Below, piece after piece: positions 1,504 to 58,480 of a DNA stretch of 64,000 nucleotides; the first letter of the stretch is position 1, and each line of letters begins with the position of its first letter. Where the stretch lies: positions 51,026,001 through 51,090,000 of the forward strand of contig OZ024744.1 of NCBI GenBank assembly GCA_964016885.1. Direction: 5' to 3'. The notes beneath the pieces are model-generated. The model did no database searches and had not been told where the DNA came from. It was given only the letters and a program-made list of their open reading frames with translations. The position numbers and the translations under genes are program-made. Origin of the DNA: Eledone cirrhosa (Eukaryota).

Positions 1504-1683
1504 ATAGGAAAAAGTATGACCCCGACGGCAGAGCTCAAGCCGTTTCGACGGCTATTTCTGGACGTCGAAACGGCTTGAGCTCTGCCGTCGGGGTCATACT
1601 TTTTCCTATTTCCCACTCTACTACCCTAAGTATTGAGTACTCTGGTGCGTTATGGTTCACCTGGTTCCTTACCACAATTCCTT

Positions 1684-1690
<7 letters not shown>
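1504..1690. repeat. Fold-back pLTR-like fragment carrying the 3' half of a hammerhead on each arm
   Basis: Inverted arms of about 46 bp (1504-1550 / 1563-1609). Contains GAAAC-GGC-ttgagctct-GCC-GTC-GGGG. Same family as 52216-52405; flanked by (TA)n. Confidence 0.75.
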
Positions 1691-6030: not shown

Positions 6031-6053
6031 GTACAGTCTACATTTATTGTCAA

Positions 6054-12352: not shown

Positions 12353-12422
<70 letters not shown>

Positions 12423-12489
12423 GTTATTCCGGGTTGAATCGGAGGTAACCACAGTAAGTAAGGTACTCAATACATTGCAGAGTATAAAA

Positions 12490-12542
12490 GAGATTCCTGG
12501 TGATTTCTAAAGAATGAAACAGTTCTAGTCCTGTAGAATCTC
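12490..12542 (+). ncRNA. Type I hammerhead motif with A6G core change
   Basis: GAGATTC | CTGGTGA | TTTC-taaa-GAAT | GAAACAG-ttctagtc-CTGTA^ | GAATCTC. The sister copy at 58511-58561 has a canonical core. Confidence 0.75.
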
Positions 12543-12555
12543 ATCTATATTAAAA

Positions 12556-12590
<35 letters not shown>

Positions 12591-19260: not shown

Positions 19261-20318
19261 TTATATTTCCAAAATATAATCCTTTTGTATTTTATGTACT
19301 CAATTGTACTATGTAATATATTGATGTATACTTATCTCTATACGACTATATATGTATGTGTGTGTATTAACATACATATACATGTGTTATATGCATTTTT
19401 ATAAATATATGTCTGTCTGTATAATATGCATGAGTGACCTGTGTCTACCAATTGGGTGAAGATGCACACACATGTTTATATATGTATATGTAAGAATTGT
19501 GTGTGTACATGTACATGTTTACCCATGCAATTTGATTGCAGATATGCATAATTTAACAGCCATAAATGCATGAAAGTTAATCCTATATATATATATATAT
19601 ATACTAACATTTTTTATTTAATAACACAAGGGATGTATAACATTAATAAAAAAAAAAAAAAAAAATCATTTATGCTTTGTATGTATATATTATATGCGGG
19701 AGTAGATATAATGTGTATTTTCTGAGTGTGTGTGTATATATATATTTATGTATTTTTGCGTATACGTACGTGCTATATGATAGGTAATTTCTCTAGCAAT
19801 ATATATATTTCGTAATGTTTAAATTCCAATTTTTTTATATATTGATCTCAATTTTTAAACTAAATATCTAATCATAGTTAAACAATGATTAATTTCTCAT
19901 ATTATATATGTATATTCCATTCATAAATATTAATATTTCTAATTTTATTTATTCATTTCATCTCAATTGTTAACTTAACTTAATATGACATGACTTAAGG
20001 TTTTCGCTCTCTTCCCCTCTCTCTATCTCTATATTTCTCTCTCTTGATTTTTTCTCTCTGTCTGGTGGTTTGATATCTCTCTGTTGTTTTTCTCTGTTTT
20101 CTTTTTTTCTTTTTTCTTTCTTCTTTTTCTTTATTTATTTCTCCCTTTTTTTTTCCACTTTTCTCTCTCTCGGTTTTTCTCTCTCTCCGTCTTTTTCCTT
20201 CTCCTTAACACAACGACTTACTAAAATAAACAAATCCACTATCCTGATGTCTTCCAAAAGTAACGGTTGCATTTTGAAAGGGTACGTCAATGTTTATTTA
20301 TAAAACTGGTATATATTG

Positions 20319-20383
20319 TATTTTGTCTGATGAAGGCATACCATAATTTAACATGGTATCCTTGAAATATGTATAATAAAATA
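20319..20383 (+). ncRNA. Type I hammerhead in the putative 3' pLTR of the 16975-18717 PLE
   Basis: TATTTTGT | CTGATGA | AGGCATACCAT...ATGGTATCCTT | GAAAT-ATGT-ATA^ | ATAAAATA. Homologs at 51992-52057 and 51788-51853. Confidence 0.78.
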
Positions 20384-20659
20384 AATATGGTTTTATAAAT
20401 ATAGTTTCCATTTGTTAATATCGTATATATATATATATATGAAAATTAGAGCTAAAACTCCAATTGGAACCCTGTAACTATTAAGCTCCAAGTATAAAAA
20501 TACTGAGCCGATTAATATATAGTAAGAAACACAGTAAACCGTGTGTCTAAAATTACAAGGGTTGAAAAACCACATTTGTTTGAAATATTTAACCAAGAAG
20601 CAGACAGAATGAAAAAATAAAAATATATTATTATACAAACCGCCTCAATAACCATTATA

Positions 20660-20740
20660 TCTCTCGGACAGATTATCCCTAATCTGTTTCGCCCTGAGTC
20701 TGTTTGTAACAGATAATCCTTGGGCATCATCAGCGAGAGA
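20660..20740 (-). ncRNA. Type I hammerhead (470-bp family)
   Basis: Reverse complement of 21313-21392, with one extra base in loop II. Confidence 0.88.
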
Positions 20741-21312
20741 ATCTGATTAAATGCAACAAACACTATTTGCCAACGTTCACACAGAAAGATGAATTTGTCA
20801 CCTCGTGCGCCGCTAGTCAAACGTGGTAAGTGCGTATTGAATAGAAATAACAGTCCAACACACACAACTTAATAAGCTCAACTTGTGAGGGAGCAAGCAG
20901 AAATATATATGAAAATTAGAGCTAAAACTCCAATTGGAACCCTGTAACTATTAAGCTCCAAGTATAAAAATACTGAGCCGATTAATATATAGTAAGAAAC
21001 ACAGTAAACCGTGTGTCTAAAATTACAAGGGTTGAAAAACCACATTTGTTTGAAATATTTCTTACTATATATTAATCGGCTCAGTATTTTTATACTTGGA
21101 GCTTAATAGTTACAGGGTTCCAATTGGAGTTTTAGCTCTAATTTTCATATATATTTCTGCTCCCTCACAAGTTGAGCTTATTAAGTTGTGTGTGTTGGAC
21201 TGTTATTTCTATTCAATACGCGCTTACCACGTTTGACTAGCGGCGCACGAGGTGACAAATTCATCTTTCTGTGTGAACGTTGGCAAATAGTGTTTGTTGC
21301 ATTTAATCAGAT

Positions 21313-21392
21313 TCTCTCGCTGATGATGCCCAAGATTATCTGTTACAAACAGACTCAGGGCGAAACAGATTAGGGATAATCTGTCCGAGAGA
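21313..21392 (+). ncRNA. Type I hammerhead (470-bp family)
   Basis: TCTCTCG | CTGATGA(T) | GCCC...GGGC | GAAACAGATTA-ggga-TAATCTGTC^ | CGAGAGA. Predicted cleavage after 21385. Confidence 0.9.
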
Positions 21393-21536
21393 TATAATGG
21401 TTATTGAGGCGGTTTGTATAATAATATATTTTTATTTTATCATTCTGTCTGCTTCTTGGTTAAATATTTCAAACAAATGTGGTTTTTCAACCCTTGTAAT
21501 TTTAGATACACAGTTTACTGTGTTTCTTACTATATA

Positions 21537-24522
21537 TAAAAACAAATAACGAAACGAAATTAAATTTCGTTTCGTTTGTAACTCACTTTTGTATGACTGA
21601 CGCTTAAACAATTAAGTTAAAAATGTACATCCACATATGTATACTGAAATACTAGTATGCATATGAATACACACACGTATACATATGTAGATGTACCAAG
21701 TCTTTCACTGGTTACTTTACTGTGAGTACCCAGCTATTCTGTATGTAAACACACAGACAAACCGGTTTTTAGAGTCATACTGGTTTTTGAGGAAACACCT
21801 TTCCTCTATTCTCCAGAAAGCCAGACAAGGAATATTGAACTAGTTTCGTTGTTGTTACAACTCATCAGCAATATTTACCTATCTACCGGCCTTTCTGGAG
21901 AATCGTAAAAGCACATATCGTTATATGCTTTTTCTATGAAAATTAGTAGTGGGCAGACTAATTTGCATAGAGTGTGAGTACGTACCGGCTCAACGGAGAC
22001 GATAAAAACAAATAACGAAACGAAATTAAATTTCGTTTCGTTTGTAACTCACTTTTGTATGACTGACGCTTAAACAATTAAGTTAAAAATGTACATCCAC
22101 ATATGTATACTGAAATACTAGTATGCATATGAATACACACACGTATACATATGTAGATGTACCAAGTCTTTCACTGGTTACTTTACTGTGAGTACCCAGC
22201 TATTCTGTATGTAAACACACAGACAAACCGGTTTTTAGAGTCATACTGGTTTTTGAGGAAACACCTTTCCTCTATTCTCCAGAAAGCCAGACAAGGAATA
22301 TTGAACTAGTTTCGTTGTTGTTACAACTCATCAGCAATATTTACCTATCTACCGGCCTTTCTGGAGAATCGTAAAAGCACATATCGTTATATGCTTTTTC
22401 TATGAAAATTAGTAGTGGGCAGACTAATTTGCATAGAGTGTGAGTACGTACCGGCTCAACGGAGACGATAAAAACAAATAACGAAACGAAATTAAATTTC
22501 GTTTCGTTTGTAACTCACTTTTGTATGACTGACGCTTAAACAATTAAGTTAAAAATGTACATCCACATATGTATACTGAAATACTAGTATGCATATGAAT
22601 ACACACACGTATACATATGTAGATGTACCAAGTCTTTCACTGGTTACTTTACTGTGAGTACCCAGCTATTCTGTATGTAAACACACAGACAAACCGGTTT
22701 TTAGAGTCATACTGGTTTTTGAGGAAACACCTTTCCTCTATTCTCCAGAAAGCCAGACAAGGAATATTGAACTAGTTTCGTTGTTGTTACAACTCATCAG
22801 CAATATTTACCTATCTACCGGCCTTTCTGGAGAATCGTAAAAGCACATATCGTTATATGCTTTTTCTATGAAAATTAGTAGTGGGCAGACTAATTTGCAT
22901 AGAGTGTGAGTACGTACCGGCTCAACGGAGACGATAAAAACAAATAACGAAACGAAATTAAATTTCGTTTCGTTTGTAACTCACTTTTGTATGACTGACG
23001 CTTAAACAATTAAGTTAAAAATGTACATCCACATATGTATACTGAAATACTAGTATGCATATGAATACATATGCATACTAGTATTTCAGTATACATATGT
23101 GGATGTACATTTTTAACTTAATTGTTTAAGCGTCAGTCATACAAAAGTGAGTTACAAACGAAACGAAATTTAATTTCGTTTCGTTATTTGTTTTTATCGT
23201 CTCCGTTGAGCCGGTACGTACTCACACTCTATGCAAATTAGTCTGCCCACTACTAATTTTCATAGAAAAAGCATATAACGATATGTGCTTTTACGATTCT
23301 CCAGAAAGGCCGGTAGATAGGTAAATATTGCTGATGAGTTGTAACAACAACGAAACTAGTTCAATATTCCTTGTCTGGCTTTCTGGAGAATAGAGGAAAG
23401 GTGTTTCCTCAAAAACCAGTATGACTCTAAAAACCGGTTTGTCTGTGTGTTTACATACAGAATAGCTGGGTACTCACAGTAAAGTAACCAGTGAAAGACT
23501 TGGTACATCTACATATGTATACGTGTGTGTATTCATATGCATACTAGTATTTCAGTATACATATGTGGATGTACATTTTTAACTTAATTGTTTAAGCGTC
23601 AGTCATACAAAAGTGAGTTACAAACGAAACGAAATTTAATTTCGTTTCGTTATTTGTTTTTATCGTCTCCGTTGAGCCGGTACGTACTCACACTCTATGC
23701 AAATTAGTCTGCCCACTACTAATTTTCATAGAAAAAGCATATAACGATATGTGCTTTTACGATTCTCCAGAAAGGCCGGTAGATAGGTAAATATTGCTGA
23801 TGAGTTGTAACAACAACGAAACTAGTTCAATATTCCTTGTCTGGCTTTCTGGAGAATAGAGGAAAGGTGTTTCCTCAAAAACCAGTATGACTCTAAAAAC
23901 CGGTTTGTCTGTGTGTTTACATACAGAATAGCTGGGTACTCACAGTAAAGTAACCAGTGAAAGACTTGGTACATCTACATATGTATACGTGTGTGTATTC
24001 ATATGCATACTAGTATTTCAGTATACATATGTGGATGTACATTTTTAACTTAATTGTTTAAGCGTCAGTCATACAAAAGTGAGTTACAAACGAAACGAAA
24101 TTTAATTTCGTTTCGTTATTTGTTTTTATCGTCTCCGTTGAGCCGGTACGTACTCACACTCTATGCAAATTAGTCTGCCCACTACTAATTTTCATAGAAA
24201 AAGCATATAACGATATGTGCTTTTACGATTCTCCAGAAAGGCCGGTAGATAGGTAAATATTGCTGATGAGTTGTAACAACAACGAAACTAGTTCAATATT
24301 CCTTGTCTGGCTTTCTGGAGAATAGAGGAAAGGTGTTTCCTCAAAAACCAGTATGACTCTAAAAACCGGTTTGTCTGTGTGTTTACATACAGAATAGCTG
24401 GGTACTCACAGTAAAGTAACCAGTGAAAGACTTGGTACATCTACATATGTATACGTGTGTGTATTCATATGCATACTAGTATTTCAGTATACATATGTGG
24501 ATGTACATTTTTAACTTAATTG
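21537..24522. mobile_element. Retrozyme-like inverted tandem array, 466-bp monomer: about 3.3 copies (-) and 3.1 copies (+)
   Basis: Exact period of 466 (21543, 22009, 22475, 22941). Inversion centre at 23064-23067. Hammerheads at 21831-21875, 22297-22341 and 22763-22807 (-), and 23324-23368, 23790-23834 and 24256-24300 (+). CTTACTATATAT flanks both sides. Confidence 0.92.
23324..23368 (+). ncRNA. Minimal type I hammerhead (466-bp family; representative of 6 copies)
   Basis: AATATTG | CTGATGA | GTTGT-aaca-ACAAC | GAAAC-TA-GTT^ | CAATATT. Stem I extends by TTCTCCAGAAAG pairing with CTTTCTGGAGAA. Confidence 0.9.
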
Positions 24523-24524
24523 CT

Positions 24525-24621
<97 letters not shown>

Positions 24622-24622
<1 letters not shown>

Positions 24623-24676
24623 TCTTTTACTCTTTTACCTGTTTCAGCCATCCGGCTGAGGCCATGCTGGGGCACC
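24622..24676 (-). mobile_element. SINE 3' tail fragment
   Basis: Minus strand ggtgccccagcatggcc...gctgaaacaggtaaaagagtaaaagag resembles an octopus SINE tail (recognised from memory, not searched). Confidence 0.55.
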
Positions 24677-24763
24677 GAAACACGGGATAATTTCTCTTTG
24701 GACATTTCTACGCATTTCTTATAAATACACTTTATCCAGCAACAACACATCCCCTGTTCCTTC

Positions 24764-24857
<94 letters not shown>

Positions 24858-24859
<2 letters not shown>

Positions 24860-25697
24860 AAATTAAGATAAATAAAATGAATTTAATCTAAATCAAAATT
24901 ATGGGTGTCATGCCAGAAAGACATGCGTCATATCACCCGGAAAATAAGCTCTAAGATTCTAACGAGTAGGTCCGAGCATTTTATAATAACTAGAAATTGA
25001 TTAACATATATATAAACATGAATAATCACAGGAGATAATTTTTACAAGTGTGTAACCACACATAGCTAGGTAGGTAACTAAATAAAGTTGACTAGAACTT
25101 CAAAAATAAATACTTTATAATATGATTAATCTTCCCTGTATATATTCCATTAAAGAAATATATTTCACCAATTAATCAGATGGTAAACCACGGAAGTGGA
25201 GATTTGGATTTTCAACAAGGAAGAAATTTCCAGCCATCCGCGCTTACACTTCAAGTTCAAATCTGCAACTGGCTATTACCACGTGTAGTATTTACTATAA
25301 ATACACACATCATAGTAGCTTCGTCCCAGTGGCGTGAATAGGGTTATCGACAACTAGAAACAGCAGTCGAGTCCTTTCAACAGAGTTAGCTCTGCAATTA
25401 AGGAGCCATATTTATATATCTCTATCCAAAATTAAGATAAATTAAATGAATTTAATCTAAATCAAAATTATGGGTGTCATGCCAGAAAGACATGCGCCAT
25501 ATCACCCGGAATATAAGCTCTAAGATTCTAACGAGTAGGTCCGAGCATTTTATAACAACTAGAAATTGATTAACATATATATAAACATGAATAATCACAG
25601 GAGATAATTTTAACAAGTGTGTAACCACACATAGCTAGGTAGGTAACTTAATAAAGTTGACTAGAACTTCAAAAATAGATACCTTATAATATGATTA
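24858..25697. repeat. Tandem repeat, 569-bp unit, about 1.5 copies, between (TA)n tracts
   Basis: caaaattaagata at 24858 and 25427, with about 270 bp of near-identity. Confidence 0.9.
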
Positions 25698-25718
25698 TAT
25701 ATATATATATATATATAT

Positions 25719-28700
25719 ATACATTATGAAGAGAGAAGAAACATTTAGATATAATTAGTAATAAAATGTATCATACCTAAACTGTTCCTAAATTCCTCGA
25801 CTACGTAGTTTCGTGGCATAAACAAAAACAATATATCAAAGATATAGAGTCCTTGCGAGGTCTGCCGACTTATCAAGAGGATACCTCATTTTACTAGTCT
25901 CAAGAACGCGTCTACACGACGTGAGAAAGAATCCCAAAAGGCGGAGGGGGAGATAGTCACGCGATATAACGGTCGAGAAACAGAGCTAAGCCTCTTATAA
26001 CCACGAAAAAAATACCACGGAGGCGGAGGGGGTATTCATATCGAGGCCGTAGAAGAGGTAGTGAAGAAGGCGAGAAGTATGAGTAATGGAAGCTTTCCAG
26101 TTGTCCCCACACTTCAAAGATTGCTCGACCAGAGGGAGTTATTAATACATTTAGAAACACACAGATACACGCGGACACACACATATATACATGAATGCAT
26201 CCGCACCCAACTGTGAGTTAAGGGTGCCAACTTCACCGATGTTGCTCAATGAATGACTGGGACAGACCAATTCAGTTTGAACCAGACTGAACCAGTATCA
26301 GAGTTAAAAATACATTATGAAGAGAGAAGAAACATTTAGATATAATTAGTAATAAAATGTATCATACCTAAACTGTTCCTAAATTCCTCGACAACGTAGT
26401 TTCGTGGCATAAACAAAAACAATATATCAAAGATATAGAGTCCTTGCGAGGTCTGCCGACTTATCAAGAGGATACCTCATTTTACTAGTCTCAAGAACGC
26501 GTCTACACGACGTGAGAAAGAATCCCAAAAGGCGGAGGGGGAGATAGTCACGCGATATAACGGTCGAGAAACAGAGCTAAGCCTCTTATAACCACGAAAA
26601 AAATACCACGGAGGCGGAGGGGGTATTCATATCGAGGCCGTAGAAGAGGTAGTGAAGAAGGCGAGAAGTATGAGTAATGGAAGCTTTCCAGTTGTCCCCA
26701 CACTTCAAAGATTGCTCGACCAGAGGGAGTTATTAATACATTTAGAAACACACAGATACACGCGGACACACACATATATACATGAATGCATCCGCACCCA
26801 ACTGTGAGTTAAGGGTGCCAACTTCACCGATGTTGCTCAATGAATGACTGGGACAGACCAATTCAGTTTGAACCAGACTGAACCAGTATCAGAGTTAAAA
26901 ATACATTATGAAGAGAGAAGAAACATTTAGATATAATTAGTAATAAAATGTATCATACCTAAACTGTTCCTAAATTCCTCGACTACGTAGTTTCGTGGCA
27001 TAAACAAAAACAATATATCAAAGATATAAAGTCCTTGCAATATATCAAAGATATAGAGTCCTTGCGAGGTCTGCCGACATCGGTGAAGTTGGCACCCTTA
27101 ACTCACAGTTGGGTGCGGATGCATTCATGTATATATGTGTGTGTCCGCGTGTATCTGTGTGTTTCTAAATGTATTAATAACTCCCTCTGGTCGAGCAATC
27201 TTTGAAGTGTGGGGACAACTGGAAAGCTTCCATTACTCATACTTCTCGCCTTCTTCACTACCTCTTCTACGGCCTCGATATGAATACCCCCTCCGCCTCC
27301 GTGGTATTTTTTTCGTGGTTATAAGAGGCTTAGCTCTGTTTCTCGACCGTTATATCGCGTGACTATCTCCCCCTCCGCCTTTTGGGATTCTTTCTCACGT
27401 CGTGTAGACGCGTTCTTGAGACTAGTAAAATGAGGTATCCTCTTGATAAGTCGGCAGACCTCGCAAGGACTCTATATCTTTGATATATTGTTTTTGTTTA
27501 TGCCACGAAACTACGTAGTCGAGGAATTTAGGAACAGTTTAGGTATGATACATTTTATTACTAATTATATCTAAATGTTTCTTCTCTCTTCATAATGTAT
27601 TTTTAACTCTGATACTGGTTCAGTCTGGTTCAAACTGAATTGGTCTGTCCCAGTCATTCATTGAGCAACATCGGTGAAGTTGGTACCCTTAACTCACAGT
27701 TGGGTGCGGATGCATTCATGTATATATGTGTGTGTCCGCGTGTATCTGTGTGTTTCTAAATGTATTAATAACTCCCTCTGGTCGAGCAATCTTTGAAGTG
27801 TGGGGACAACTGGAAAGCTTCCATTACTCATACTTCTCGCCTTCTTCACTACCTCTTCTACGGCCTCGATATGAATACCCCCTCCGCCTCCGTGGTATTT
27901 TTTTCGTGGTTATAAGAGGCTTAGCTCTGTTTCTCGACCGTTATATCGCGTGACTATCTCCCCCTCCGCCTTTTGGGATTCTTTCTCACGTCGTGTAGAC
28001 GCGTTCTTGAGACTAGTAAAATGAGGTATCCTCTTGATAAGTCGGCAGACCTCGCAAGGACTCTATATCTTTGATATATTGTTTTTGTTTATGCCACGAA
28101 ACTACGTAGTCGAGGAATTTAGGAACAGTTTAGGTATGATACATTTTATTACTAATTATATCTAAATGTTTCTTCTCTCTTCATAATGTATTTTTAACTC
28201 TGATACTGGTTCAGTCTGGTTCAAACTGAATTGGTCTGTCCCAGTCATTCATTGAGCAACATCGGTGAAGTTGGCACCCTTAACTCACAGTTGGGTGCGG
28301 ATGCATTCATGTATATATGTGTGTGTCCGCGTGTATCTGTGTGTTTCTAAATGTATTAATAACTCCCTCTGGTCGAGCAATCTTTGAAGTGTGGGGACAA
28401 CTGGAAAGCTTCCATTACTCATACTTCTCGCCTTCTTCACTACCTCTTCTACGGCCTCGATATGAATACCCCCTCCGCCTCCGTGGTATTTTTTTCGTGG
28501 TTATAAGAGGCTTAGCTCTGTTTCTCGACCGTTATATCGCGTGACTATCTCCCCCTCCGCCTTTTGGGATTCTTTCTCACGTCGTGTAGACGCGTTCTTG
28601 AGACTAGTAAAATGAGGTATCCTCTTGATAAGTCGGCAGACCTCGCAAGGACTCTATATCTTTGATATATTGTTTTTTGTTTATGCCACGAAACTACGTA

Positions 28701-31310
28701 GTCGAGGAATTTAGGAACAGTTTAGGTATGATACATTTTATTACTAATTATATCTAAATGTTTCTTCTCTCTTCATAATGTATTTTTAACTCTGATACTG
28801 GTTCAGTCTGGTTCAAACTGAATTGGTCTGTCCCAGTCATTCATTGAGCAACATCGGTGAAGTTGGCACCCTTAACTCACAGTTGGGTGCGGATGCATTC
28901 ATGTATATATGTGTGTGTCCGCGTGTATCTGTGTGTTTCTAAATGTATTAATAACTCCCTCTGGTCGAGCAATCTTTGAAGTGTGGGGACAACTGGAAAG
29001 CTTCCATTACTCATACTTCTCGCCTTCTTCACTACCTCTTCTACGGCCTCGATATGAATACCCCCTCCGCCTCCGTGGTATTTTTTTCGTGGTTATAAGA
29101 GGCTTAGCTCTGTTTCTCGACCGTTATATCGCGTGACTATCTCCCCCTCCGCCTTTTGGGATTCTTTCTCACGTCGTGTAGACGCGTTCTTGAGACTAGT
29201 AAAATGAGGTATCCTCTTGATAAGTCGGCAGACCTCGCAAGGACTCTATATCTTTGATATATTGTTTTTGTTTATGCCACGAAACTACGTAGTCGAGGAA
29301 TTTAGGAACAGTTTAGGTATGATACATTTTATTACTAATTATATCTAAATGTTTCTTCTCTCTTCATAATGTATTTTTAACTCTGATACTGGTTCAGTCT
29401 GGTTCAAACTGAATTGGTCTGTCCCAGTCATTCATTGAGCAACATCGGTGAAGTTGGTACCCTTAACTCACAGTTGGGTGCGGATGCATTCATGTATATA
29501 TGTGTGTGTCCGCGTGTATCTGTGTGTTTCTAAATGTATTAATAACTCCCTCTGGTCGAGCAATCTTTGAAGTGTGGGGACAACTGGAAAGCTTCCATTA
29601 CTCATACTTCTCGCCTTCTTCACTACCTCTTCTACGGCCTCGATATGAATACCCCCTCCGCCTCCGTGGTATTTTTTTCGTGGTTATAAGAGGCTTAGCT
29701 CTGTTTCTCGACCGTTATATCGCGTGACTATCTCCCCCTCCGCCTTTTGGGATTCTTTCTCACGTCGTGTAGACGCGTTCTTGAGACTAGTAAAATGAGG
29801 TATCCTCTTGATAAGTCGGCAGACCTCGCAAGGACTCTATATCTTTGATATATTGTTTTTGTTTATGCCACGAAACTACGTAGTCGAGGAATTTAGGAAC
29901 AGTTTAGGTATGATACATTTTATTACTAATTATATCTAAATGTTTCTTCTCTCTTCATAATGTATTTTTAACTCTGATACTGGTTCAGTCTGGTTCAAAC
30001 TGAATTGGTCTGTCCCAGTCATTCATTGAGCAACATCGGTGAAGTTGGCACCCTTAACTCACAGTTGGGTGCGGATGCATTCATGTATATATGTGTGTGT
30101 CCGCGTGTATCTGTGTGTTTCTAAATGTATTAATAACTCCCTCTGGTCGAGCAATCTTTGAAGTGTGGGGACAACTGGAAAGCTTCCATTACTCATACTT
30201 CTCGCCTTCTTCACTACCTCTTCTACGGCCTCGATATGAATACCCCCTCCGCCTCCGTGGTATTTTTTTCGTGGTTATAAGAGGCTTAGCTCTGTTTCTC
30301 GACCGTTATATCGCGTGACTATCTCCCCCTCCGCCTTTTGGGATTCTTTCTCACGTCGTGTAGACGCGTTCTTGAGACTAGTAAAATGAGGTATCCTCTT
30401 GATAAGTCGGCAGACCTCGCAAGGACTCTATATCTTTGATATATTGTTTTTTGTTTATGCCACGAAACTACGTAGTCGAGGAATTTAGGAACAGTTTAGG
30501 TATGATACATTTTATTACTAATTATATCTAAATGTTTCTTCTCTCTTCATAATGTATTTTTAACTCTGATACTGGTTCAGTCTGGTTCAAACTGAATTGG
30601 TCTGTCCCAGTCATTCATTGAGCAACATCGGTGAAGTTGGCACCCTTAACTCACAGTTGGGTGCGGATGCATTCATGTATATATGTGTGTGTCCGCGTGT
30701 ATCTGTGTGTTTCTAAATGTATTAATAACTCCCTCTGGTCGAGCAATCTTTGAAGTGTGGGGACAACTGGAAAGCTTCCATTACTCATACTTCTCGCCTT
30801 CTTCACTACATCTTCTACGGCCTCGATATGAATACCCCCTCCGCCTCCGTGGTATTTTTTTCGTGGTTATAAGAGGCTTAGCTCTGTTTCTCGACCGTTA
30901 TATCGCGTGACTATCTCCCCCTCCGCCTTTTGGGATTCTTTCTCACGTCGTGTAGACGCGTTCTTGAGACTAGTAAAATGAGGTATCCTCTTGATAAGTC
31001 GGCAGACCTCGCAAGGACTCTATATCTTTGATATATTGTTTTTGTTTATGCCACGAAACTACGTAGTCGAGGAATTTAGGAACAGTTTAGGTATGATACA
31101 TTTTATTACTAATTATATCTAAATGTTTCTTCTCTCTTCATAATGTATTTTTAACTCTGATACTGGTTCAGTCTGGTTCAAACTGAATTGGTCTGTCCCA
31201 GTCATTCATTGAGCAACATCGGTGAAGTTGGCACCCTTAACTCACAGTTGGGTGCGGATGCATTCATGTATATATGTGTGTGTCCGCGTGTATCTGTGTG
31301 TTTCTAAATG

Positions 31311-31314
<4 letters not shown>
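25719..31314. mobile_element. Retrozyme-like inverted tandem array, 591-bp monomer: about 2.3 copies (-) and 7.2 copies (+)
   Basis: Period 591/592. Junction at about 27078 is preceded by a 27-bp duplication. Variant hammerhead in every unit, with TTGATAA starting at 27443, 28034, 28625, 29217, 29808, 30399 and 30991 (+), and full motifs at 25794-25881 and 26385-26472 (-). (TA)n on both sides. Confidence 0.93.
27438..27525 (+). ncRNA. Type I hammerhead with U3-A8 variant core (representative of 9 copies)
   Basis: TCCTC | TTGATAA | GTcGGCA...TGCCAC | GAAAC-TACGTA-GTC^ | GAGGA. Predicted cleavage after 27520. Confidence 0.85.
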
Positions 31315-31349
<35 letters not shown>

Positions 31350-33029: not shown

Positions 33030-33445
33030 TGTTATATATATATATATGAATGTATATACAGTGTATTTTGCAATACACTGTATGCTTAATTAAAAACATT
33101 TTGAAGATCTTACGCTATTGTTTTAAAGCAGTGACTATGTCACTTACTTCTTTTTTCAACAAACAAAGGGAGATAAGCTGACACAGTTCCTGATTATTAC
33201 TGGAATTCTACAAGAATCCAACATTCATAATTTTCAACAAACAAGAGGAGTGCTAAGCTCTGAGGAATACCAACAGTATGAAACAGAGATCTGTCAGCTT
33301 TTCTCCCTTTGTTTGTTGAAAAAAAGATGAAGTAAGTGACATAGTCACTACTTTAAAACAATAGCGTATGGTCTTCAAAATGCTTTTAATTAAGCATACA
33401 GTGTATTGCAAAATACACTGTATATACATTCATATATATATATCG
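33030..33445. repeat. Inverted repeat with arms of about 150 bp (pLTR-like fold-back) containing a hammerhead
   Basis: 33030-33183 mirrors 33293-33445. Confidence 0.85.
33255..33300 (+). ncRNA. Compact type I hammerhead
   Basis: AAGCT | CTGAGGA | ATAC-caaca-GTAT | GAAACAGA-ga-TCTGTC^ | AGCTT. Confidence 0.9.
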
Positions 33446-33915: not shown

Positions 33916-33929
33916 TATTATCTCTCTAT

Positions 33930-36900
33930 ATATAGTAATAATAAATTTGAAGACTAAAATCCAAAGAGGGTTCGATAAGGATAAATATATATCAAATATA
34001 TAAGAACCATAGAGCAAATATTTATTAAAATAACAGATTAAAGTTTAAGCAAAGAATCGAAGCTTTCACTCTTAACGGGATCTTCTGAAACAAAAAAAGT
34101 CTATCTGTGAACGCAGAAGTAAATATTTCAAAAAACGTTGCAACCGAAGGAAGACAGGAAGACGATACTTTGGTTCGTGGAAACGTTCCCTGGCAAAGAA
34201 CAGAAAAAAACGACGATAATACGAAGATAAAACGTCATGTGGATCGATGAGAACAATTACACGCAAAGACAAAACCACGTTTATGGTATAAATGAAGTCG
34301 TAGACTAATATTCTCTTAGGTGGAGACGTTCTCTGGCAAAGAACGGAAAAAACGAAGATAATACGTCATTATGTCGATCACTGAAAACAATTACACGCAA
34401 AGACAAAACCACGTAAATGGTATAACTGAAGTCGTCGACTAAAATTCTATTTAGGAAACCGAATGATTCTCGGCTTCAGAGTTAAGAATAAAGTAAATAA
34501 AATACTGAGGTAATTGAAATTAAATATATACATACACGCATCCAAATACACAAGCATACGCGAAAACACTCGCCATGGGTATGTAAATACAAGCACGTAC
34601 AAATAAAAAAAAACCCGCACGTACAAACAGAACCCACGCAACGCCTGTACCCGCACACATACGAACGTATACACCAAATACACATCAAAATATATATATA
34701 AAAAATATATATATATATATGTGTGTGTGTGTGCGTGTATACATAATTAAATAAACGTATATAAATATACACACATATATACGTATATAACGCGCGCACA
34801 CACCTACATGTAAATACACATCTGTTCGCGGACGTACGTCAACCAAAACACAAAGTACACATATACACACACCCTACATACGTACGAACCCGCATACTCA
34901 CACAGAGGCAAAACTCACGTATACACATAACCAAATGCACATGTACCAGTATATATAATATATACGCCATAAGATATACAAGCAAATATACGTACGGGAA
35001 AGTATACGTACCTTCACAAAACATACAGGTAATATATACTTACCTATATAAATAAGTAATGGTATAAAGATAACATATACTTAGCTACCACATCAAGACG
35101 TAAAATATCCGCGTATAGCTCGTACTATCCGTTAGCGTATAATGTGGGGCTGTAATACAGGAAAGTTTTGTGCAATTGATGTTTACAAGCCGAAATTGCC
35201 TCAGATTTTTTGTTTAAGATGTGGTCTTTGGCGTAGAGTATTTCCCGGGCCTCATCGGCGCAGAGGTCACATGGTCTTTTATTTCCGTTATACGATCTAG
35301 CCTCAGCTAGGATATCCCAGTGTAACTTATATTGGATGTGTGGTAGTCTTTTAGACTCCAGATATAAGCTGAAAGTGACGTCATATTTCTTCTTAAAGGG
35401 TTAAGAAAAGAATGGGTATGCATGTAAAGACGCTGCTTGAATTCATTGGCGGTTAACCCTATGTAGGCCCTACGGGTCGTGGGTGTTTCAACCTTACATT
35501 TATAGACAATGTTACTAGAGAGGCATTTCCCAGATAGGGGCAGTCAACCCGATTCCTACAATTACAGTTAGTACTAGCTACAGGGTTTCACGTGTTCCTA
35601 CGGCTAGGTAATTTAGCTAAATTTGAAGCTGTGATGTTATGTGCAAGGTTAGGAGTCGTAGAGTAAGATATTTTAATGGTATTTCTATTAAAATTTTTAC
35701 TATATTTATGTGCTGGGGAGAAATGCTTCATAATAAAGGAGAGAAAGATCTTAGCTAATAGTGTGGCCACCTCCATATTATATGGTGGGACCATATAATC
35801 CGCCGGGATCTATTTTTCCTAGGTCTATTTTCGTACTCAGTATAAGCTACCTTATCGACAAATCCACTCCGAGCAAGAGCTTCATTGTAATACGTGGAAT
35901 GGTCGGTGAAAATATGCTCGTTTGTAGATAGACGGGAAAGCCGCAAAGAAACGTTTCTTACCAGGTTATTGGTTATGCTGGCAGGATGGTTAGAATTCTT
36001 ACTTATGTAATTAAGCGTATCATTCGGCTTTGTATACGGGTAGTGCAAGCCATTCGACAAATTGAGGGTAACGTCGAGGTAATTAACGACCGAGAGGTTG
36101 GCCTCAACCTGTATGGAGAGGTTGAAGCCTTTAAAGAAGGCTGTGAGTTCTTTTCTGAACCTGTCGCAAGCACGTGGGCCGCACTTTGTCATGGTCAAAA
36201 GACCGTCATCACGGTACAAACCACCGCCCACGTTGGAGAATTCTTCCTTGATAGAGAAAAGAAGGAAAAGGCCGATAAGATCAGTAACCTCCTCAGAATC
36301 GCTGGCGCCCATACTCACATCGAATGGGGTACTATTAGATTTTTTAATCCAAATAGAGTCGTCGAAATTAATCACCGACTTACGGGCACTGAGGATGACA
36401 TCAACTTCGAAATCCTTAACCACTATGAATGTTTTAGCGAAATTGATAGCTCTAAGAAGAAGTGGTAAAGTGATGGAGGAGTAGTAATTATTGATGTCGA
36501 ATTGGATAAAACGGCAATGTTCCTTGTTGCATATGCCGTTGAACCAATCAATCGCCGCGAAAGAATTGTTCCACAGTGCAGGAGGGGCCAAACTTCTAAT
36601 TTCAGGTATAATTCTATCTAAAATCCTTTTACTAAGTCTACCTAAATCGGACTTCGTAGGGTTAATAAGCCGAATAGAGGGGTTGTTCGGGAAATTGGAT
36701 TTGTGATCCTTCAGGGTAAAGTGGGGAGAAATAGGTTTCAGAGGTTCGGTCCGGTCCAGAATGTTGAGATCAGAGGTGATTTTAAACCCAGCATCGTTGA
36801 TTTCATTAATGACGCACCGATTAGTTTTACGGTAATCCTTAGTTACAACATTATGTAGTAGTTGATGGTAAGTACTGCGCTCCACTTGATATAGGTTGCC

Positions 36901-37208
36901 AGTTTTGTCGGAATGGACGTGCACGGCATTATAATCCTTAATAGAACGAATTCTATTCTTCAGGTCCTGCTGGAAGGAATTGCTCCTATTCCGAAATTTG
37001 ATACTCCGTATGAGTTCCAAGACATCATTTTCGAAGGGTAACAATGCTCGGAGGGTTATTATAGGTTTTAAACCCAAATGTATCCTGTTTGTTTTCTGCT
37101 TTTCCCTGATTTACGAAATAAAAGGCACGCCAACGTAACCTTTTAAATCCCGTTAAGGGTGAAAGCAGCGATTCTTTGCTTAAACTTTAATCTGTTATTT
37201 TAATAAAT
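33930..37208 (-). mobile_element. Penelope-like element (Hydra-like) with 3' UTR/pLTR and an inverted pLTR piece at its 5' end
   Basis: ORF 35755-37077 has SDKTGNLY, LKDHK, FIQFDINNYYSSI, GLYRDDGL and NYLDVTLNL. GIY-YIG remnant at 35200-35580. Segment 37148-37208 is an inverted copy of 34016-34082. Confidence 0.9.
34043..34091 (-). ncRNA. Hammerhead-like motif with CAGAAGA (U4A) core in the pLTR
   Basis: Minus strand: GTTT | CAGAAGA | TCCC-gttaa-GAGT | GAAAGC...TGCTT^ | AAAC. Copies at 55261-55311 (-) and 58425-58469 (+, 3'-deleted). Confidence 0.6.
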
Positions 37209-37256
37209 ATATATATATATGTATAAACATACACATGGTATGTACACACACACACA

Positions 37257-37315: not shown

Positions 37316-37334
37316 ACACACATATATATATGTA

Positions 37335-37760
37335 TATAATCAAATATATAGATGGAAAAATTAGCCTTTAAATCATTTTTAATTCCTTACGTATGTTTCA
37401 AGAGAGTTATACATTAAATTATTGGAATAATGTTAGGTGAAAATTCGTATAATCAATATCTAGACAAACACAATTTTTCATTATGTCAGTCGGTAGACTT
37501 GAGATGTCCCCCATCCTGTTTAAGGTGGGAATTGAATTTCAGTTATAGTCTTCTTCAATTTAATATGTTTTCTTTTAAAATCCTCTGAAGATGGAGATGT
37601 ACAAATTAAATCTGTATATCATTTTGTATGTATAGATATTGATTATACAAATTACATGTAACGTTCTTCCAATAATTTAATCTATAACTCTCTTGAAACA
37701 TATGTAAGGAATTAAAAATGATTCAAAAACTACTTTTTCCATCTATATATTTGATTATAT
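37335..37760. repeat. Fold-back pLTR-like element; hammerhead at 37581-37710 (+)
   Basis: 37335-37465 mirrors 37630-37760. Motif TCCT | CTGAAGA | TGGAGA..(about 90 nt)..TCTCTT | GAAAC-ATAT-GTA^ | AGGA. Confidence 0.72.
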
Positions 37761-38976: not shown

Positions 38977-39046
<70 letters not shown>

Positions 39047-39049
39047 GAT

Positions 39050-45800
<6,751 letters not shown>

Positions 45801-46409
45801 TAAGCCTTATACGTCCCGAAGAACAGTACATTACTCAAGAATGTAATAAGCACTTTAACAGAAAATTAAAGTGGCTTAAACAGGCAAAGCTAAATCGGGA
45901 TACTATAGAGTATACCAATAGATATCCCGACAAAATTGACGGTATCAACATGGCCGACACCTCATTATCTGAAGAGTTCAACAATGAAAATACCAACATC
46001 TATGGAAACACGGAAATAGATAATAATGAAATGTCTGTGTTACGTCTGCCACCCAAATTTGCGACATTCAAGAAGGTAAATATGATTAGTTGTCTGTCAG
46101 AAATAGAAAAATCATTTACGAAACTACGCTGGAGCATCAAAAACAAAAACAAAAACAAAAGCAACAATATACGCACACACATATACAACACACATCCCAA
46201 CAACAACAGACACACAGACACAAACAACAATAACAACAACAATAGCAACATACCCAGATACAACAACAACAGACACGCAAACACAAACAACAATAACAAC
46301 ACACACAACAACGATAACACACACACACACGGAGACAACAACAACACACATCAACAACAACACACATCAACAACAACACACATCAACAACAACAACACAC
46401 ACGCATTCA

Positions 46410-51627: not shown

Positions 51628-51748
51628 GATATGATTATATATGTATATACATATATGCAAAAGTTTTATTTAAAATTGTTGGGTTACAACAAGTAAATAT
51701 TTTATAACTGATATAAAGCACTCGACAAGTTTTTGGAGTAGATATACG

Positions 51749-52096
51749 ATATTAAACAAATGGAAACTATATTTATAAAACCATATTTATTTCATTATAC
51801 ATATTTCAGGGATACCATATTAAAAATATGGCATGCCTTCGTCAGATAAAATACAATATATAACCAGTTTTATAAATAATTTTGACGTACCATAAGTATA
51901 GCGACCATTAGGGTAGGAAGCTGGCTTGGTACCTTAATGGTCGCTATATTTATGGTACGTCAAAATTATTTATAAAACTGGTTATATATTGTATTTTATC
52001 TGACGAAGGCATGCCATATTTTTAATATGGTATCCCTGAAATATGTATAATGAAATAAATATGGTTTTATAAATATAGTTTCCATTTGTTTAATAT
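51749..52096. repeat. Palindrome of two solo pLTRs; hammerheads at 51788-51853 (-) and 51992-52057 (+)
   Basis: Arms of about 160 bp. Motif TATTTTAT | CTGACGA | AGGCATGCCATATT-ttt-AATATGGTATCCCT | GAAAT-ATGT-ATA^ | ATGAAATA, homologous to 20280-20420. Confidence 0.87.
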
Positions 52097-52138
52097 TGTA
52101 TATACATATATATTTACACACACACATATATATATATA

Positions 52139-52215: not shown

Positions 52216-52217
<2 letters not shown>

Positions 52218-52401
52218 CGAAGGAAATGTGGTAAGGAACCAGGTGGACCATAACGCACCAAAGTACTCAATACTTGAGGTAGTAGAGTGGGTAATAGGAA
52301 CCAGTAAGACCCCGACAGCTGAGCTCAAGCCGTTTCGACGGCTAATTCTGAGAATTAGCCGTCGAAACGGCTTGAGCTCAGCTGTCGGGGTCTTACTGGT
52401 T

Positions 52402-52405
<4 letters not shown>
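52216..52405. repeat. Fold-back fragment with perfect 55-bp arms and hammerhead 3' halves
   Basis: Arms 52295-52349 and 52351-52405. Same family as 1504-1690. Confidence 0.85.
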
Positions 52406-53628
<1,223 letters not shown>

Positions 53629-54231: not shown

Positions 54232-55138
54232 TATATACAATTGAATATATGAGAGGGATGAACACCGATACAAGTATACATGTGTTCGAATTGCAAATGA
54301 CCATGTTAGCTAAGAAGAGCACAGGAATGGTGGCTTTCACTTAATAATTCTTGCGAAACAGATTTTAGATCTGTCCGGATATCAAAGGCTGTTGCCCGAT
54401 ATAGGTTTGTTATTTTTTTTGATTTATTATTTTAAATCGCGACAGGCAAACCATATTGTTTTAAATTAGTATTTTTTCAACTTAACTAACATGGTCAGTT
54501 GCAATTCGAACACATGTATACTTGTATCGGTGTTCATCCCTCTCATATATTCAATTGTATTACACGGCTCGGAAAGATTCCCTTCCTTGAGCTATTTAAT
54601 TGTAAAAGACTATTTTGAGTTTCTAACTGAATCTATGATATTCTCGGCTCCATACGTAGAGCTAACTTTAGTCTCATAAAACCGGCTGCTATTTTTAGCG
54701 GCATGAGAATGAGACGCGCTAGGCGCTGCGACATGTGCTTTTATATCAAGACATAGTTCAGTCTTCTTAGATCTTTTGAAGTGAAAGGTACAAATTTCCT
54801 GGATACCCGCAGAAGAGCACAGGAATAGTGGCTTACACTTAATAATTCTTGCGAAACAGATTTTAGATCTGTCCGGGTATCAAAGGCAGTTGCCCAATAT
54901 AGGTTTGTTATTTTTATTGATTTATTACTTTAAATCGAGACAGGCAAACCATATTGTTTTAATTTAGTATTTTTTCAACCTAGCTAACTTGGTCATTTGC
55001 AATTCGAACACATGTATACTTGTATCGGTGTTCATCCCTATCATATATTCAATTGTATTACACGGCTCGGAAAGATTCCCTTCTTTGAGGTATTTAATTG
55101 TAAAAGACTATTTTGAGTTTCTAACTGAATCTATGATA
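54232..55138. mobile_element. Retrozyme-like element, 498-bp monomer: inverted 80-bp piece plus about 1.65 copies (+)
   Basis: The GAAACAGA motif starts at 54355 and 54853. Segment 54232-54310 is the reverse complement of part of the unit. TA-flanked. Confidence 0.82.
54802..54881 (+). ncRNA. Type I hammerhead with CAGAAGA (U4A) core
   Basis: GATACCCG | CAGAAGA | GCAcAGGAAT...ATTCTTGC | GAAACAGAT-tttag-ATCTGTC^ | CGGGTATC. Confidence 0.8.
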
Positions 55139-55144: not shown

Positions 55145-58100
55145 TATATAGTAATAATAATAAATTTGAAGACTTAAATCCAAAGAGGGCTCGATAAGGA
55201 TAAATATATATCAAATATATAAGAACCGTAGAGAAAATATTTATTAAAATAACAGATTAAAGTTTAAGCAAAGAATCGCTGCTTTCACTCTTAACTGGAT
55301 CTTCTGAAACTAAAACGCAGAAGTAAATAATTCGAGAAACATTGCAGCCGAAGGAAAACAGGAAGACGATACTTTGGTTCGTGAAGACGTTCCCTGGCAA
55401 TGAACGAAAAAAAGCGAAGATAAAACGTCGTTATGTGGAGCGTTTAGAACAAATACACGCAAAGACAAAACCACGTTTATGGTATAAATGAAGTCGTAGA
55501 CTAATATTCTATTTAGGAAACCGAATGATATCTCGGCTTCTGAGTTAAGAATAATTGTTTCTACTTTTGGCACAAGGCCAGCAATCACCCAGTACATTAC
55601 TGGTACTTTATTTTATCGACGAATAATGTAAATAAATTAGTAGAACGATAATGACAGAGGTTATTAAAATCAAATAATTAAATATATACATACAAGCATC
55701 TATAAACGTACATACACAGGCATACGCAAAACACACACCATGCATGCATAAACATGCACGTACACATACATAAATCCGCGCGACACCTGTATCTGCACAC
55801 ATACGAACGTATACATCAAATACACATAACATTTTTTATATATATGTGTGTGTGTATGTGTGTATATACATATAATTATATAAACGTATATAAATATACA
55901 CACATAAATACGTATATAACGCACACGCACACATACATACAGGTAAAAACAATATGTTCACCAAACGTTTCGCCACAACCCGTCTATTCGGCTAATTAAC
56001 CTTACGAAGTCTGATTTAGGTAGACTTAGTAAAAAGGATTTTAGATAGAATTATACCTGAAATTAGAAGCTTGGCCCCTCTTGCACTGAAATAATTCTTT
56101 CGTGGCGATTGATTGGTTCAATGGCATATGCAACAAGGAACATTGCTTTTATCCAATTCGACATCAATAACTACTACTCCTCCATCACTTTACCACTTCT
56201 TCTTAGAGCTATCAATTTCGCTAAAACGCTCACGGTGGTTAGGGATTTCGAAGTTGATGTCATCCTCAACGCCCATAAGTCAGTGATTAATTTCGACGAC
56301 TCTATTTGGATAAAAAATCTAATAGTACCCCATTCGACATGAGTATAGGCGCCAGCGATTCTGAGGAGGTTACAGATCTTAACGACATTTTCCTTCTTTT
56401 CTCTATCAAGAAAGAATTCCCAATGTGGGTGGTGGTTTTTACCGCGATGACGGTGCGGTCCACGCGCTTGCGACAGGTTAAGAAAAGAACTCACAGCCTT
56501 CTTTAAAGGCTTCAACCTCTCCATACAGGTTGAGGCCAACCTCTCGGTCGTTAATTACCTCAACGTTACCCTCAATTAGTCGAATGGCTTGCATTATCCG
56601 TATAGAAAGCCAAATGATACGCTTAATTACATAAGTAAGCATTCTAACCATCCTGCCAGCATAACCAAGAACCTGGTAAGAAACGTTTCTTTGCGGCTTT
56701 CCCGTCTATCTACAAACGAGCATATTTTCACCGACCATTCCACATATTACAATGAAGCTCTTGCTCGTAGCGGATGTGTTGATAAGGTAGCATATACTAA
56801 GTATGAGCATAGACCAAGGAAAAATAGATCCCGACACATTATATGGTATAACCCACCATATAATATGGAGGCGACCACACCATTAGCTAAGATCTTTCTC
56901 TCCCTTATTAAGAAGCATTTCCCCTCAGCACATAAATATAATAACATTTTTAATAGAAATACCATTAAAATACCTTACACTACGGCTCCTAACCTTGCTC
57001 ATAACATCACTGTTTCAAATTTAGCTAAATTACCTAGCCGTAGGAACACGTGAAACCCTGTAGCTAGCACTAACTGTAATTGTAGGAATCGAGCTGACTG
57101 ATCTCTATCCGGGAAATGTCTCTCCAGTAACATTGTCTACAAATGTAAGGTCGAAGCACCCACGTCCCGTAGGGCTTACATAGGGTTAACCGCCAATAGA
57201 TTCAAGCAGCGTCTTTACATGCACACCCATTCTTTTCTTAACCCTTTTAAGAAGGAATATGACGTCACTTTCAGCTTATATCTGGAGTCTAAAAGACAAC
57301 CACATCCAATATAGGTTCCAGTGGGACATCCTAGCTAGAGCTAGATCGTATAACAGAAATAAAAGACCTTGTGATCTTTGCGCCGCTGAAGCCCTGGAAA
57401 TACTCTACGCCAATGATCACATCTTAAAAAAAAAAAATCTGAGGCAATTTCGGCTTGTAAACACAAATTGCATAAAACCTTCCTGTATTACAGCCCCACT
57501 TTATGCCCTAACGGATAGTACGAACAATACGCGGATAATTTACGTCTCGATGTGATAGCTAAGTATATTTTTTGCTTATACCATTACTTATTTGTATAGG
57601 TAAGTATACCTTACTCGTATGTTTTGTGAATGTACTTATACTTTCTCCTACGTATATATGCTTGTATTTGTTATAAGTGTATATATTATATTATATATAC
57701 TGGTATATGTGTATATGGTTATGTGTATATGTGTATTTTGTGTTTGTGTGCGTATGCGTGTATGCGTGTTTGCATGTACAATGTGTTTTGGTTGATGTAT
57801 GCTTGGTGAACATATGTGTTTTTACCTGTAGGTATCTGTGCGCGTGCGTTATATGCGTATTTATATGTGTATATTTATATACGTTTACATAATTATATGT
57901 ATACACACACACTCACACACACACACATCAATTGTTTTTATGTTTATTTGGTGTACCACAACAGCCACCGGACACGCCGACACCTAGTTGCACCGGACTG
58001 AACTCCTCACCCAGTTCGGGTGTTATGGACCTGCAGACCACCTTGGCAGCGAGTCTCCGGAAGACATTTCCCACGGCAATGGGGCGTATGCCACCCTCTT

Positions 58101-58480
58101 TCTTCCTGAGAGCGGTGAGGCTCTCAGGAAGAAAGAGGCCTCGGGCGTGAGGGTCCAGGGTGTCATGGATGAGCCTATATAGGAAGCCGAGAATCATTCG
58201 GTTTCCTATATAGAATATTAGTTTACGACTTCATTTATACCATAAACGTGGTTTTTCTTTGCGTGTATTTGTTCTCATCGATCCACATAACGACGTTTCA
58301 TCTTCGCTTTTTTCTGTTCATTACCAGGGAACGTCTTCATGAACCAAAGTATCGTCTTCCTGTTTTCCTTCGGTTGCAACGTTTTTCGAAATATTTACTT
58401 CTGCGTTCACAGATTGATTTTTTTAGTTTCAGAAGATCCCGTTAAGGGTGAAAGCAGCGATTCTTTGCTGTTATTTTAAT
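55145..58480 (+). mobile_element. Decayed PLE, same family as 33930-37208, with an inverted 3' UTR/pLTR at its 5' side
   Basis: Broken ORFs at 55980-57500 match 35200-36680. Segment 55145-55970 mirrors 57780-58480. A SINE tail is inserted at 55553-55620. Confidence 0.88.
57950..58185 (-). mobile_element. CRE-clade LINE RT fragment inserted in the PLE 3' UTR
   Basis: LTALRKKEGGIRPIAVGNVFRRLAAKV...QLGVGVSGG. Confidence 0.8.

Follow-up and report, generated by a model that had tools for sequence, protein, structure and literature searches.

The 64,000-nucleotide stretch of the Eledone cirrhosa genome analyzed here (GenBank assembly GCA_964016885.1, contig OZ024744.1, positions 51,026,001 to 51,090,000 of the forward strand; hereafter the window, numbered from its first letter) contains, between positions 21537 and 31314, tandem arrays of hammerhead-ribozyme repeats arranged as two inverted arms that face away from a central junction. 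Related arrays and fold-backs, together with coding Penelope-like elements (PLEs), occur elsewhere in the window (Table 1). The repeats, named by their unit lengths of 466, 470, 498, 569 and 591 bp, are non-coding, with no stop-free frame of at least 120 aa inside the arrays; other elements are named by position. We scanned for ribozymes with a self-made type I hammerhead descriptor, used in a looser form and in a stricter version with a stem II filter. The stricter descriptor yielded 17 matches in the window compared to 0.07 per shuffled window, and Rfam at its gathering threshold yielded none in the 64 kb. The 466 array contains six hammerhead cores in consecutive units, and the 470 element one per arm. 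The 591 ribozyme has the core TTGATAA, a U3/A8 variant on record in PLEs (PMC4209133; here and below, statements on published work refer to excerpts of the cited sources). It passes the looser scan, fails the stricter stem II filter and is predicted to fold as a three-way junction; the looser scan matched it seven times in the right arm and once in the left, where one more copy shows a change in stem III. The core of 498 reads CAGAAGA instead of CTGANGA (position 54810), a variant shared with the pseudo-long terminal repeats (pLTRs) of the coding elements 33930 and 55145 and possibly inactive. For the array ribozymes, self-cleavage is a prediction from their folds.

The ribozyme strand is a sound marker of the sense strand, because in 78 Hydra-clade PLE loci from metagenomes (taken from the best 80 of 310 confirmed stretches) 60 of the 61 ribozyme matches lay on the strand of the open reading frame (ORF). 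By this marker, the left arm is (-) and the right arm (+) in 466, 470 and the solo fold-back 51749, and the right arm is (+) in 498 and 33030. The arrangement that the original prediction had proposed for the 470, 466, 591 and 498 arrays, a (-) left arm and a (+) right arm, was confirmed by hammerhead strand, for 498 through its right arm. Its extension to solo fold-backs and coding elements holds for 33030 and 51749 and, by ORF strand, for 33930, 55145 and 39043 (listed there as 39050); 37335 lacks an intact ribozyme, so that it offers no usable marker and its orientation is not independently assignable. Head-to-head orientation was thereby found, by ribozyme or ORF strand, for 9 of the 10 named elements and for all nine that are assignable. 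Four further fold-backs with partial markers (1504, 12420, 52297 and 52450) have the same orientation, and none of 13 elements is tail-to-tail (0.5^9 = 0.002, the elements not all being independent). The rule is limited by at least seven ribozyme or ORF elements that have one arm only (16813, 20281, 24858, 33501, 46107, 53744 and 58496).

Comparison of left and right arms revealed 0/1455 differences in 466 and 2/1112 in 591. In 466, the starting points of the two arms lie at most 5 nt apart, and the arms comprise an equal number of units. Both junctions read as originally described, catatg-aata-catatg at 23058-23073 forming a near-perfect hairpin in 466 and ccgac|atcgg lying at 27078 in 591, and the 27-bp stutter said to precede the latter was found within stem II of the 591 hammerhead. 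The right-arm units of 591 are ordered A,B,C,A,B,C,A',A, a 3-unit block of 1774 bp with two markers being present twice; recombination, misassembly or a jump between templates may have produced this duplication. We considered whether 591 had been copied from a circular trimer and rejected this, since the A-B-C order fits units 1-6 but unit 8 is without the expected marker. Five ribozyme families (51749-type, 470, 466, 569 and 591) and a short repeat are stacked within 11 kb (20281-31347) with (TA)n tracts between them, 466 being inserted in the 3' end of 470. The 569-bp tandem within this range was absent from the earlier list.

The arms end at two sites of the unit, a near site (T1) and a far site (T2). 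In 9 of the 10 evaluable fold-backs, which exclude 39043, 37335, 52450 and 12420, one arm ends at T1 and the other at T2 (P 0.011 if ends were chosen independently), with 33030 as the like-ended exception. The T1-T2 distance amounts to 70 nt in 466, 74-80 nt in 470, 77 nt in 498 and 52297, 79 nt in 1504, 83 nt in 33930, ~85 nt in 51749, 86 nt in 55145 and 165 nt in 591, and the longer arm may be either the left or the right one. Each arm of 55145 and of 12420 holds sequence absent from the other, so that neither is simply a duplicate of its partner; the arms of 1504 are likewise not mutually contained. Most arm ends finish in TAT, followed by (TA)n. The insertions sit in (TA)n with flanks that are not mirrored, and arm divergence spans 0-10.7% across elements. 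A target-site duplication of 12 bp flanks 466; at the other elements any such duplication would be hidden by (TA)n.

We compared the region of the 591 junction (26834-27445) with 4 of 24 listed sequencing runs, in which the 591 family is abundant. Among the matches listed, raw reads of run X22, from another study, pass from 591 sequence into (AT)n at two points: 209 reads do so at 26901, which is unit position 524 and T1 of the array in the window, and 211 at 27174, which is unit position 98 and T2 (numbers of reads, not of loci). The same two exits into (AT)n were present in contigs of run X1 (11 and 2, respectively). The mirror-image arrays are real insertions and not read fold-backs, because the arms end at different sites, 466 carries a target-site duplication and independent reads end at the same 591 sites. 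Four cross-arm joints in X1, all head-to-head and none tail-to-tail, were not counted (24-29 letters each, depth 3.7-7). Run X5 contained a 577-nt cyclic contig of a relative's 591 unit, nearly identical, with a ~14-nt gap near unit position 86-99 and lacking the stutter.

A short bipartite element, RCTC..YGAGCACT, occurs in two copies, one a few bases downstream of T1 and the other a few bases downstream of T2. Its first sign was a CTC following T1 by at most 10 nt, which 7 of 8 families of the window share (null for any trimer 0.002). In the metagenomic loci the element (GCTC, 7-18 nt, YGAGCACT) gave 85 matches on the ORF strand and 4 on the opposite strand, present in 45 of the 78 loci (null 1.4), including 27 adjacent pairs 54-82 nt apart. 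It is usually located 36-60 nt past the ribozyme cut (39 of 42 distances) and ahead of the start codon. Ends of partial tandems in these loci lay within -4 to +8 nt of a copy in 10 of 19 cases, 4 at the first copy and 6 at the last (P 7e-8 to 5e-4, depending on the null chosen). A position matrix trained on the metagenomic loci alone placed its top site, out of 932-1182 sites, 4-12 nt after T2 in sense orientation in 4/4 array units. Copies in the arrays are spaced by 69 nt in 466, 80 nt in 470 and 498 and 165 nt in 591, which agrees with the tail lengths. G-C forms the outer pair in 470, 498 and 60 instances from the metagenomes, and A-U does so in 1504/52297, 51749 and 12420. The spacer measures 3-52 nt, and long spacers are predicted to fold into hairpins. 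Published Hydra consensus sequences bear the same element (PMC8557442, File S7), with two copies ahead of the ATG in Hydra-1_Ajap and two other consensuses ending ~25 nt past a copy; in the excerpted text and supplement of that paper the words 'stem-loop' and 'hairpin' occur 0 times, the element thus being visible but unnamed. A search covering mostly the open literature, Repbase reports lying outside it, brought up no publication describing either inverted retrozyme arrays or this motif.

The same loci also contain inverted copies. Among inverted rows of at least 85% identity, 8 of 14 (7 loci) are antisense copies upstream of PLE sequence; five of these seven loci, which may be assembly fold-backs, terminate within the ORF or where the contig stops, and inverted copies ending at the signal were observed only in L007, L029 and the lower-identity L013. 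The Hydra contigs L021, L043, L048, L053, L064 and L072 show a circular permutation that places their ribozyme and signal pair centrally, as expected for collapsed tandem or circular copies.

The ORFs of the coding elements 16813, 33930, 39043 and 55145 form one group. Judged by motifs alone, they are Hydra-clade PLEs: their translations, aligned with 20 of 120 listed homologues, have a CxCX5C linker, no CCHH motif, and CxxC and CxH near the carboxy-terminus. DKT was seen in 33930; the copies in the window are 5'-truncated before RWK, and the homologues carry both DKT and RWK. The elements sit in (TA)n, and a hammerhead was identified by hand at 39383. The CxCX5C linker, the lack of CCHH, the endonuclease CxxC and CxH and the (TA)n target match the published description of the Hydra clade, which further lists DKT and a canonical hammerhead (PMC8557442); a family of this clade from Octopus bimaculoides has been reported (PMC8557442). 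The 33930 family has only the CAGAAGA variant core, without a clear stem I, and the stricter descriptor found no hammerhead in 16813. Pfam matched 2 of 8 ORF pieces (RVT_1 below the cut-off, and GIY-YIG). We considered whether the inner and outer arms of 39043 differ in age and rejected this, their divergence being 0.4-0.6% and a figure of 92.6% a masking effect. The window also contains PLEs with CCHH motifs, 46107 and 72-1338, which look Neptune-like by their cysteine motifs. The Neptune-like copy at 45800-49683 has a 1003-codon stop-free frame and a minimal hammerhead at 49429, and is without an inverted arm.

Orientation, the two ends, the (TA)n target, one duplication and the signal position are seen directly. 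We interpret the arrays as non-autonomous hammerhead retrozymes inserted by the reverse transcriptase/GIY-YIG protein of Hydra-clade PLEs, with both nicked strands priming, one per signal copy, and assign this reading a probability of roughly two in three. The enzyme would nick both strands of (TA)n, giving 3' overhangs; with protein bound at each signal copy, one overhang would pair with the UAU just upstream, and the sense RNA would be copied. The two cDNAs, terminating either at unrelated positions or both at one RNA end, would be joined via 1-7 nt of microhomology. At the junctions we observed 1 nt in 466, 2 nt in 591, 3 nt in 470 and the stem I complement in 12420. For arms of several units, the template would have to be a multimer left uncleaved or an RNA circle, and the matched arms of 466 favor a shared RNA end or a snap-back. 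Five families may have become stacked in 11 kb because each insertion would leave (TA)n at both ends. Judged by sequence, read-through could form duplexes of ~1.46 kb and 1.3 kb, in line with the kilobase-long dsRNA suggested in the original prediction. Comparison of the arms, at few sites, showed no A-to-G excess.

Two proposals of the original prediction gain support from this analysis: that both target ends prime cDNA synthesis, by analogy and through the two end sites, the signal pair and the extension of both strands by a Poseidon protein in vitro, and that the arrays are tied to a PLE enzyme, strengthened by the common duplicated signal and tail length. The suggested likeness to twin priming fits less well, as the arms overlap and copy the same 3' region with ends 70-165 nt apart, which is nearer to dual priming or to the two adjacent starts of Poseidon. 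The shared orientation itself is expected, because head-to-head has already been described as the most frequent arrangement of PLEs (PMC3846280); novel are the Hydra-clade identity of the coding elements and the duplicated signal that ties both ends. More tentatively, and at somewhat less than even odds, the duplicated RCUC..YGAGCACU hairpin could be the binding and initiation signal of Hydra-clade proteins, a dimer sitting on both copies and each half priming one strand. The head-to-head arrangement and the one-sided tail would then be programmed, and retrozymes would keep both copies per unit to stay mobile.

Several observations weigh against insertion by a Hydra-clade protein acting at two signal copies. 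Among 16 termini in the window, seven have a fully paired motif, four a loose one and five none (466 T1, 33930 T1, 37335, 52450 and 569); the best site in 466 scores 6.1 bits, and the outer pair of 591 is an A-C mismatch in both copies. The motif was discovered post hoc and in the window, where a matrix scan was not enriched (75 matches, many of them array repeats, vs 41-57 in shuffles), and 9 of the 19 metagenomic ends lie away from it, some of the loci belonging to one family. Besides the like-ended 33030, the right arm of 39043 ends off-site. No record among the matches listed in the four runs bridges the 27078 junction, the 466 junction being outside the compared region. Moreover, the Poseidon start site in vitro shows no strand preference or homology to the cut DNA, whereas the ends here share TAT with the target, and the Neptune-like PLEs of the window could supply the enzyme.

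The last point leads to an alternative in which the arrays are mobilized by a non-Hydra PLE, Neptune-like or other, and match the motif through inheritance or chance. Neptune-like CCHH ORFs lie in the same window, and a bias towards (TA)n has been attributed to Neptune and Naiad as well (PMC8557442). The array units show no clear homology to the 33930 pLTR, similarity between families exceeding z 2.5 in 3 of 28 pairs and in none with the coding family, and the motif is weak in 466. Tail length and signal nevertheless match the Hydra elements, and the pLTR of the Neptune-like 46107 has no matrix match on its sense strand, rendering this explanation very unlikely. We also regard it as largely refuted, and highly improbable, that the palindromes arose from post-insertion DNA rearrangement of tandem satellites or as long-read fold-back chimeras. 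The perfect identity of the 466 arms around a 4-nt loop would suit such an origin, as would the lack of junction-spanning reads at 27078 in the four runs, and the duplicated block of 591 points to later recombination or misassembly in that arm. Against this stand arm ends at different, family-wide sites beside (TA)n, the unmirrored flanks, the duplication at 466, the range of arm divergence and the consistent lack of tail-to-tail elements.

Self-priming was weighed as well: the first copy, or a self-primed antisense RNA, would fold back into a hairpin, and the endonuclease would recognize the motif in its DNA form and trim the two ends to T1 and T2. Such a snap-back has been proposed for rotifer Penelopes, given their palindromic junctions, and for the tail (PMC3846280; PMC8557442), and the matched starts and unit numbers of 466 as well as the near-symmetric arms of 52297 and 51749 are in line with it. 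A simple cDNA snap-back could not produce the private sequence of both arms in 55145 and 12420, and the variable spacer with its hairpin-folding long forms, together with the G-C/A-U switch of the outer pair, is more readily reconciled with a single-stranded structure than with a DNA site. We therefore consider self-priming unlikely, while a version with an antisense hairpin of large loop may remain compatible.

The Hydra-clade retrozyme interpretation can be set beside the known systems. Metazoan non-LTR (long terminal repeat) retrozymes are hammerhead tandem repeats that have been argued to be derivatives or passengers of PLEs (PMC7229834; PMC7761336; bioRxiv 10.64898/2026.07.22.740005). Like them, the arrays consist of non-coding head-to-tail repeats with a type I hammerhead per unit and a GC content of 33-42% (criterion, below 45-50%); unlike them, the units measure 466-591 bp vs the published 170-400 nt, which is a size range and not a strict criterion, and the inverted double arrays and one-sided tail are absent from the excerpted retrozyme texts. 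A 2020 review described the repeats as being without a conserved motif that points to an autonomous partner, for which we here found a candidate. For PLE insertions, head-to-head is the most frequent arrangement, with palindromic junctions and self-priming on an antisense template as a proposal (PMC3846280), and an inverted truncated copy with a 30-40 bp tail at one end is standard (PMC8557442). The arrays share the head-to-head arms, palindromic junctions, one-end tail, the short target duplication in the case of 466 and, on our reading, mobilization of non-coding sequence in trans, and differ in their longer tail of 70-86 nt (165 in 591), in arms that are multi-unit ribozyme arrays and in both ends being tied to a duplicated signal.

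The purified Poseidon protein PAc cuts and extends both target strands in vitro, starting at two adjacent RNA positions that equal the tail ends; it is predicted to be a dimer, and ribozyme cleavage is dispensable (PMC11167929). PAc belongs to another clade and has one AC-rich stem-loop, in contrast to the duplicated signal here, and inverted products are not addressed in the excerpts of that study. L1 twin priming occasionally yields two inverted fragments with an internal deletion, and dual priming on two RNAs is a postulate (PMC2837659). As in these L1 models, both overhangs would prime, the arms face away from the junction and, at 466, the target is duplicated; unlike in twin priming, the arms are two copies of one region with fixed end sites, overlap each other and show no internal-deletion pattern.

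Table 1 Features of the window (positions from its first letter; T1 and T2, near and far end sites of the unit).
Feature	Position	Strand	Description
470 element, left arm	20441..21060	(-)	1.3 units; terminus at T2; hammerhead core 20733
470 element, right arm	21058..21537	(+)	1 unit; terminus at T1; core 21320; 3-nt junction overlap
470 signal copy 1	21079..21103	(+)	GCTC..GGAGCT, 6 nt after T1 in unit
470 signal copy 2	21159..21178	(+)	GCTCC..TTGAGCT, directly after T2 in unit
466 target-site duplication, left copy	21526..21537	(+)	12 bp
466 array, left arm	21536..23068	(-)	3.3 units; terminus at T2; cores 21868, 22334, 22800
466 central junction	23058..23073		catatg-aata-catatg; 4-nt loop
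466 array, right arm	23068..24522	(+)	3.1 units; terminus at T1; cores 23331, 23797, 24263; palindromic stem III
466 signal copy 1	23130..23153	(+)	Degenerate; in every unit
466 signal copy 2	23199..23212	(+)	Short; in every unit
466 target-site duplication, right copy	24523..24534	(+)	12 bp, continues into (TA)47
Single-armed hammerhead element, 51749 family	20281..20425	(+)	Own TA tail is the 470 insertion site
569-bp tandem	24858..25695	(-)	1.5 units; U3/A8 hammerhead at 25215; single arm
591 array, left arm	25722..27078	(-)	2.2 units plus stutter; terminus at T1 (unit position 524)
27-bp duplication (stutter)	27011..27065		In 591 hammerhead stem II; ends 14 nt before junction
591 array, right arm	27077..31314	(+)	7.2 units; terminus at T2 (unit position 98)
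591 signal copy 1	27606..27669	(+)	ACTC, 52-nt hairpin spacer, TGAGCAAC; after T1, each unit
591 signal copy 2	27771..27790	(+)	ACTCC..TCGAGCAAT; 5 nt after T2, each unit
498 element	54236..55137		77-bp left arm to T1; 1.65-unit right arm to T2
498 signal copies	54567..54593 and 54647..54663		
Hydra-clade PLE 33930 (by motifs)	33933..37210		ORF (-); long left arm to T2; 64-bp right arm to T1; 83-nt tail
Hydra-clade PLE 39043 (by motifs)	39043..45802		ORF and hammerhead (39383) on (-); right arm 44007-45802, a copy of the 3' untranslated region ending in simple repeats
Hydra-clade PLE 55145 (by motifs)	55145..58480		Left arm short, with tail, to T2; right arm long, with ORF, to T1
Fold-back 1504	1504..1688		79-nt tail on right arm; ACTC..GAGT signal
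Fold-back 12420	12420..12557		Left arm begins at ribozyme cleavage site and bears tail; right arm has ribozyme
Solo fold-back 33030	33047..33436		Hammerhead 33260 (+); both arms share one end site, exception to tail rule
Fold-back 37335	37334..37760		Old; arms 10.7% apart
Solo fold-back 51749	51660..52100		Hammerheads 51845 (-), 52000 (+); left-arm tail ~85 nt with ACTC..GAGT
Fold-back 52297, 1504 family	52217..52406		77-nt tail on left arm

Among the elements of Table 1, an arm start at the ribozyme cleavage site was seen in 12420 and nearly so in 33030 and 569, and in none of the others. We discarded the assignment of a 70-nt tail to 37335 as unsafe. The small fold-back 52450, with a tail of ~45 nt and the first signal half only, lies together with (TA)n tracts in a tandem duplication of ~555 bp (52399-53628). 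A dispersed repeat of at most ~280 bp, SINE-like (short interspersed element) by appearance, occurs at 15904, 32671, 33640-33919, 55550 and 63099-63498, one piece of it interrupting the left arm of 55145. Decayed reverse transcriptase fragments of non-LTR retrotransposons lie at 5324-8659 and 12922-13433, which we take to be RTE- or Tx1-like by their motifs.

The excerpted PLE literature describes the origin of both the tail and the inverted arms as open, and the partner of animal retrozymes has so far been argued from co-occurrence and pLTR similarity. The model of paired priming by a Hydra-clade protein accounts for the poor assembly of such loci and for the presence of several families in one (TA)n tract. 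A short signal that predicts both ends, and that is found in coding elements of many marine samples as well as in non-coding arrays, makes this model exactly testable. If the signal is indeed what these proteins recognize, it would allow ribozyme satellites to be matched by sequence with their enzymes across animal phyla.

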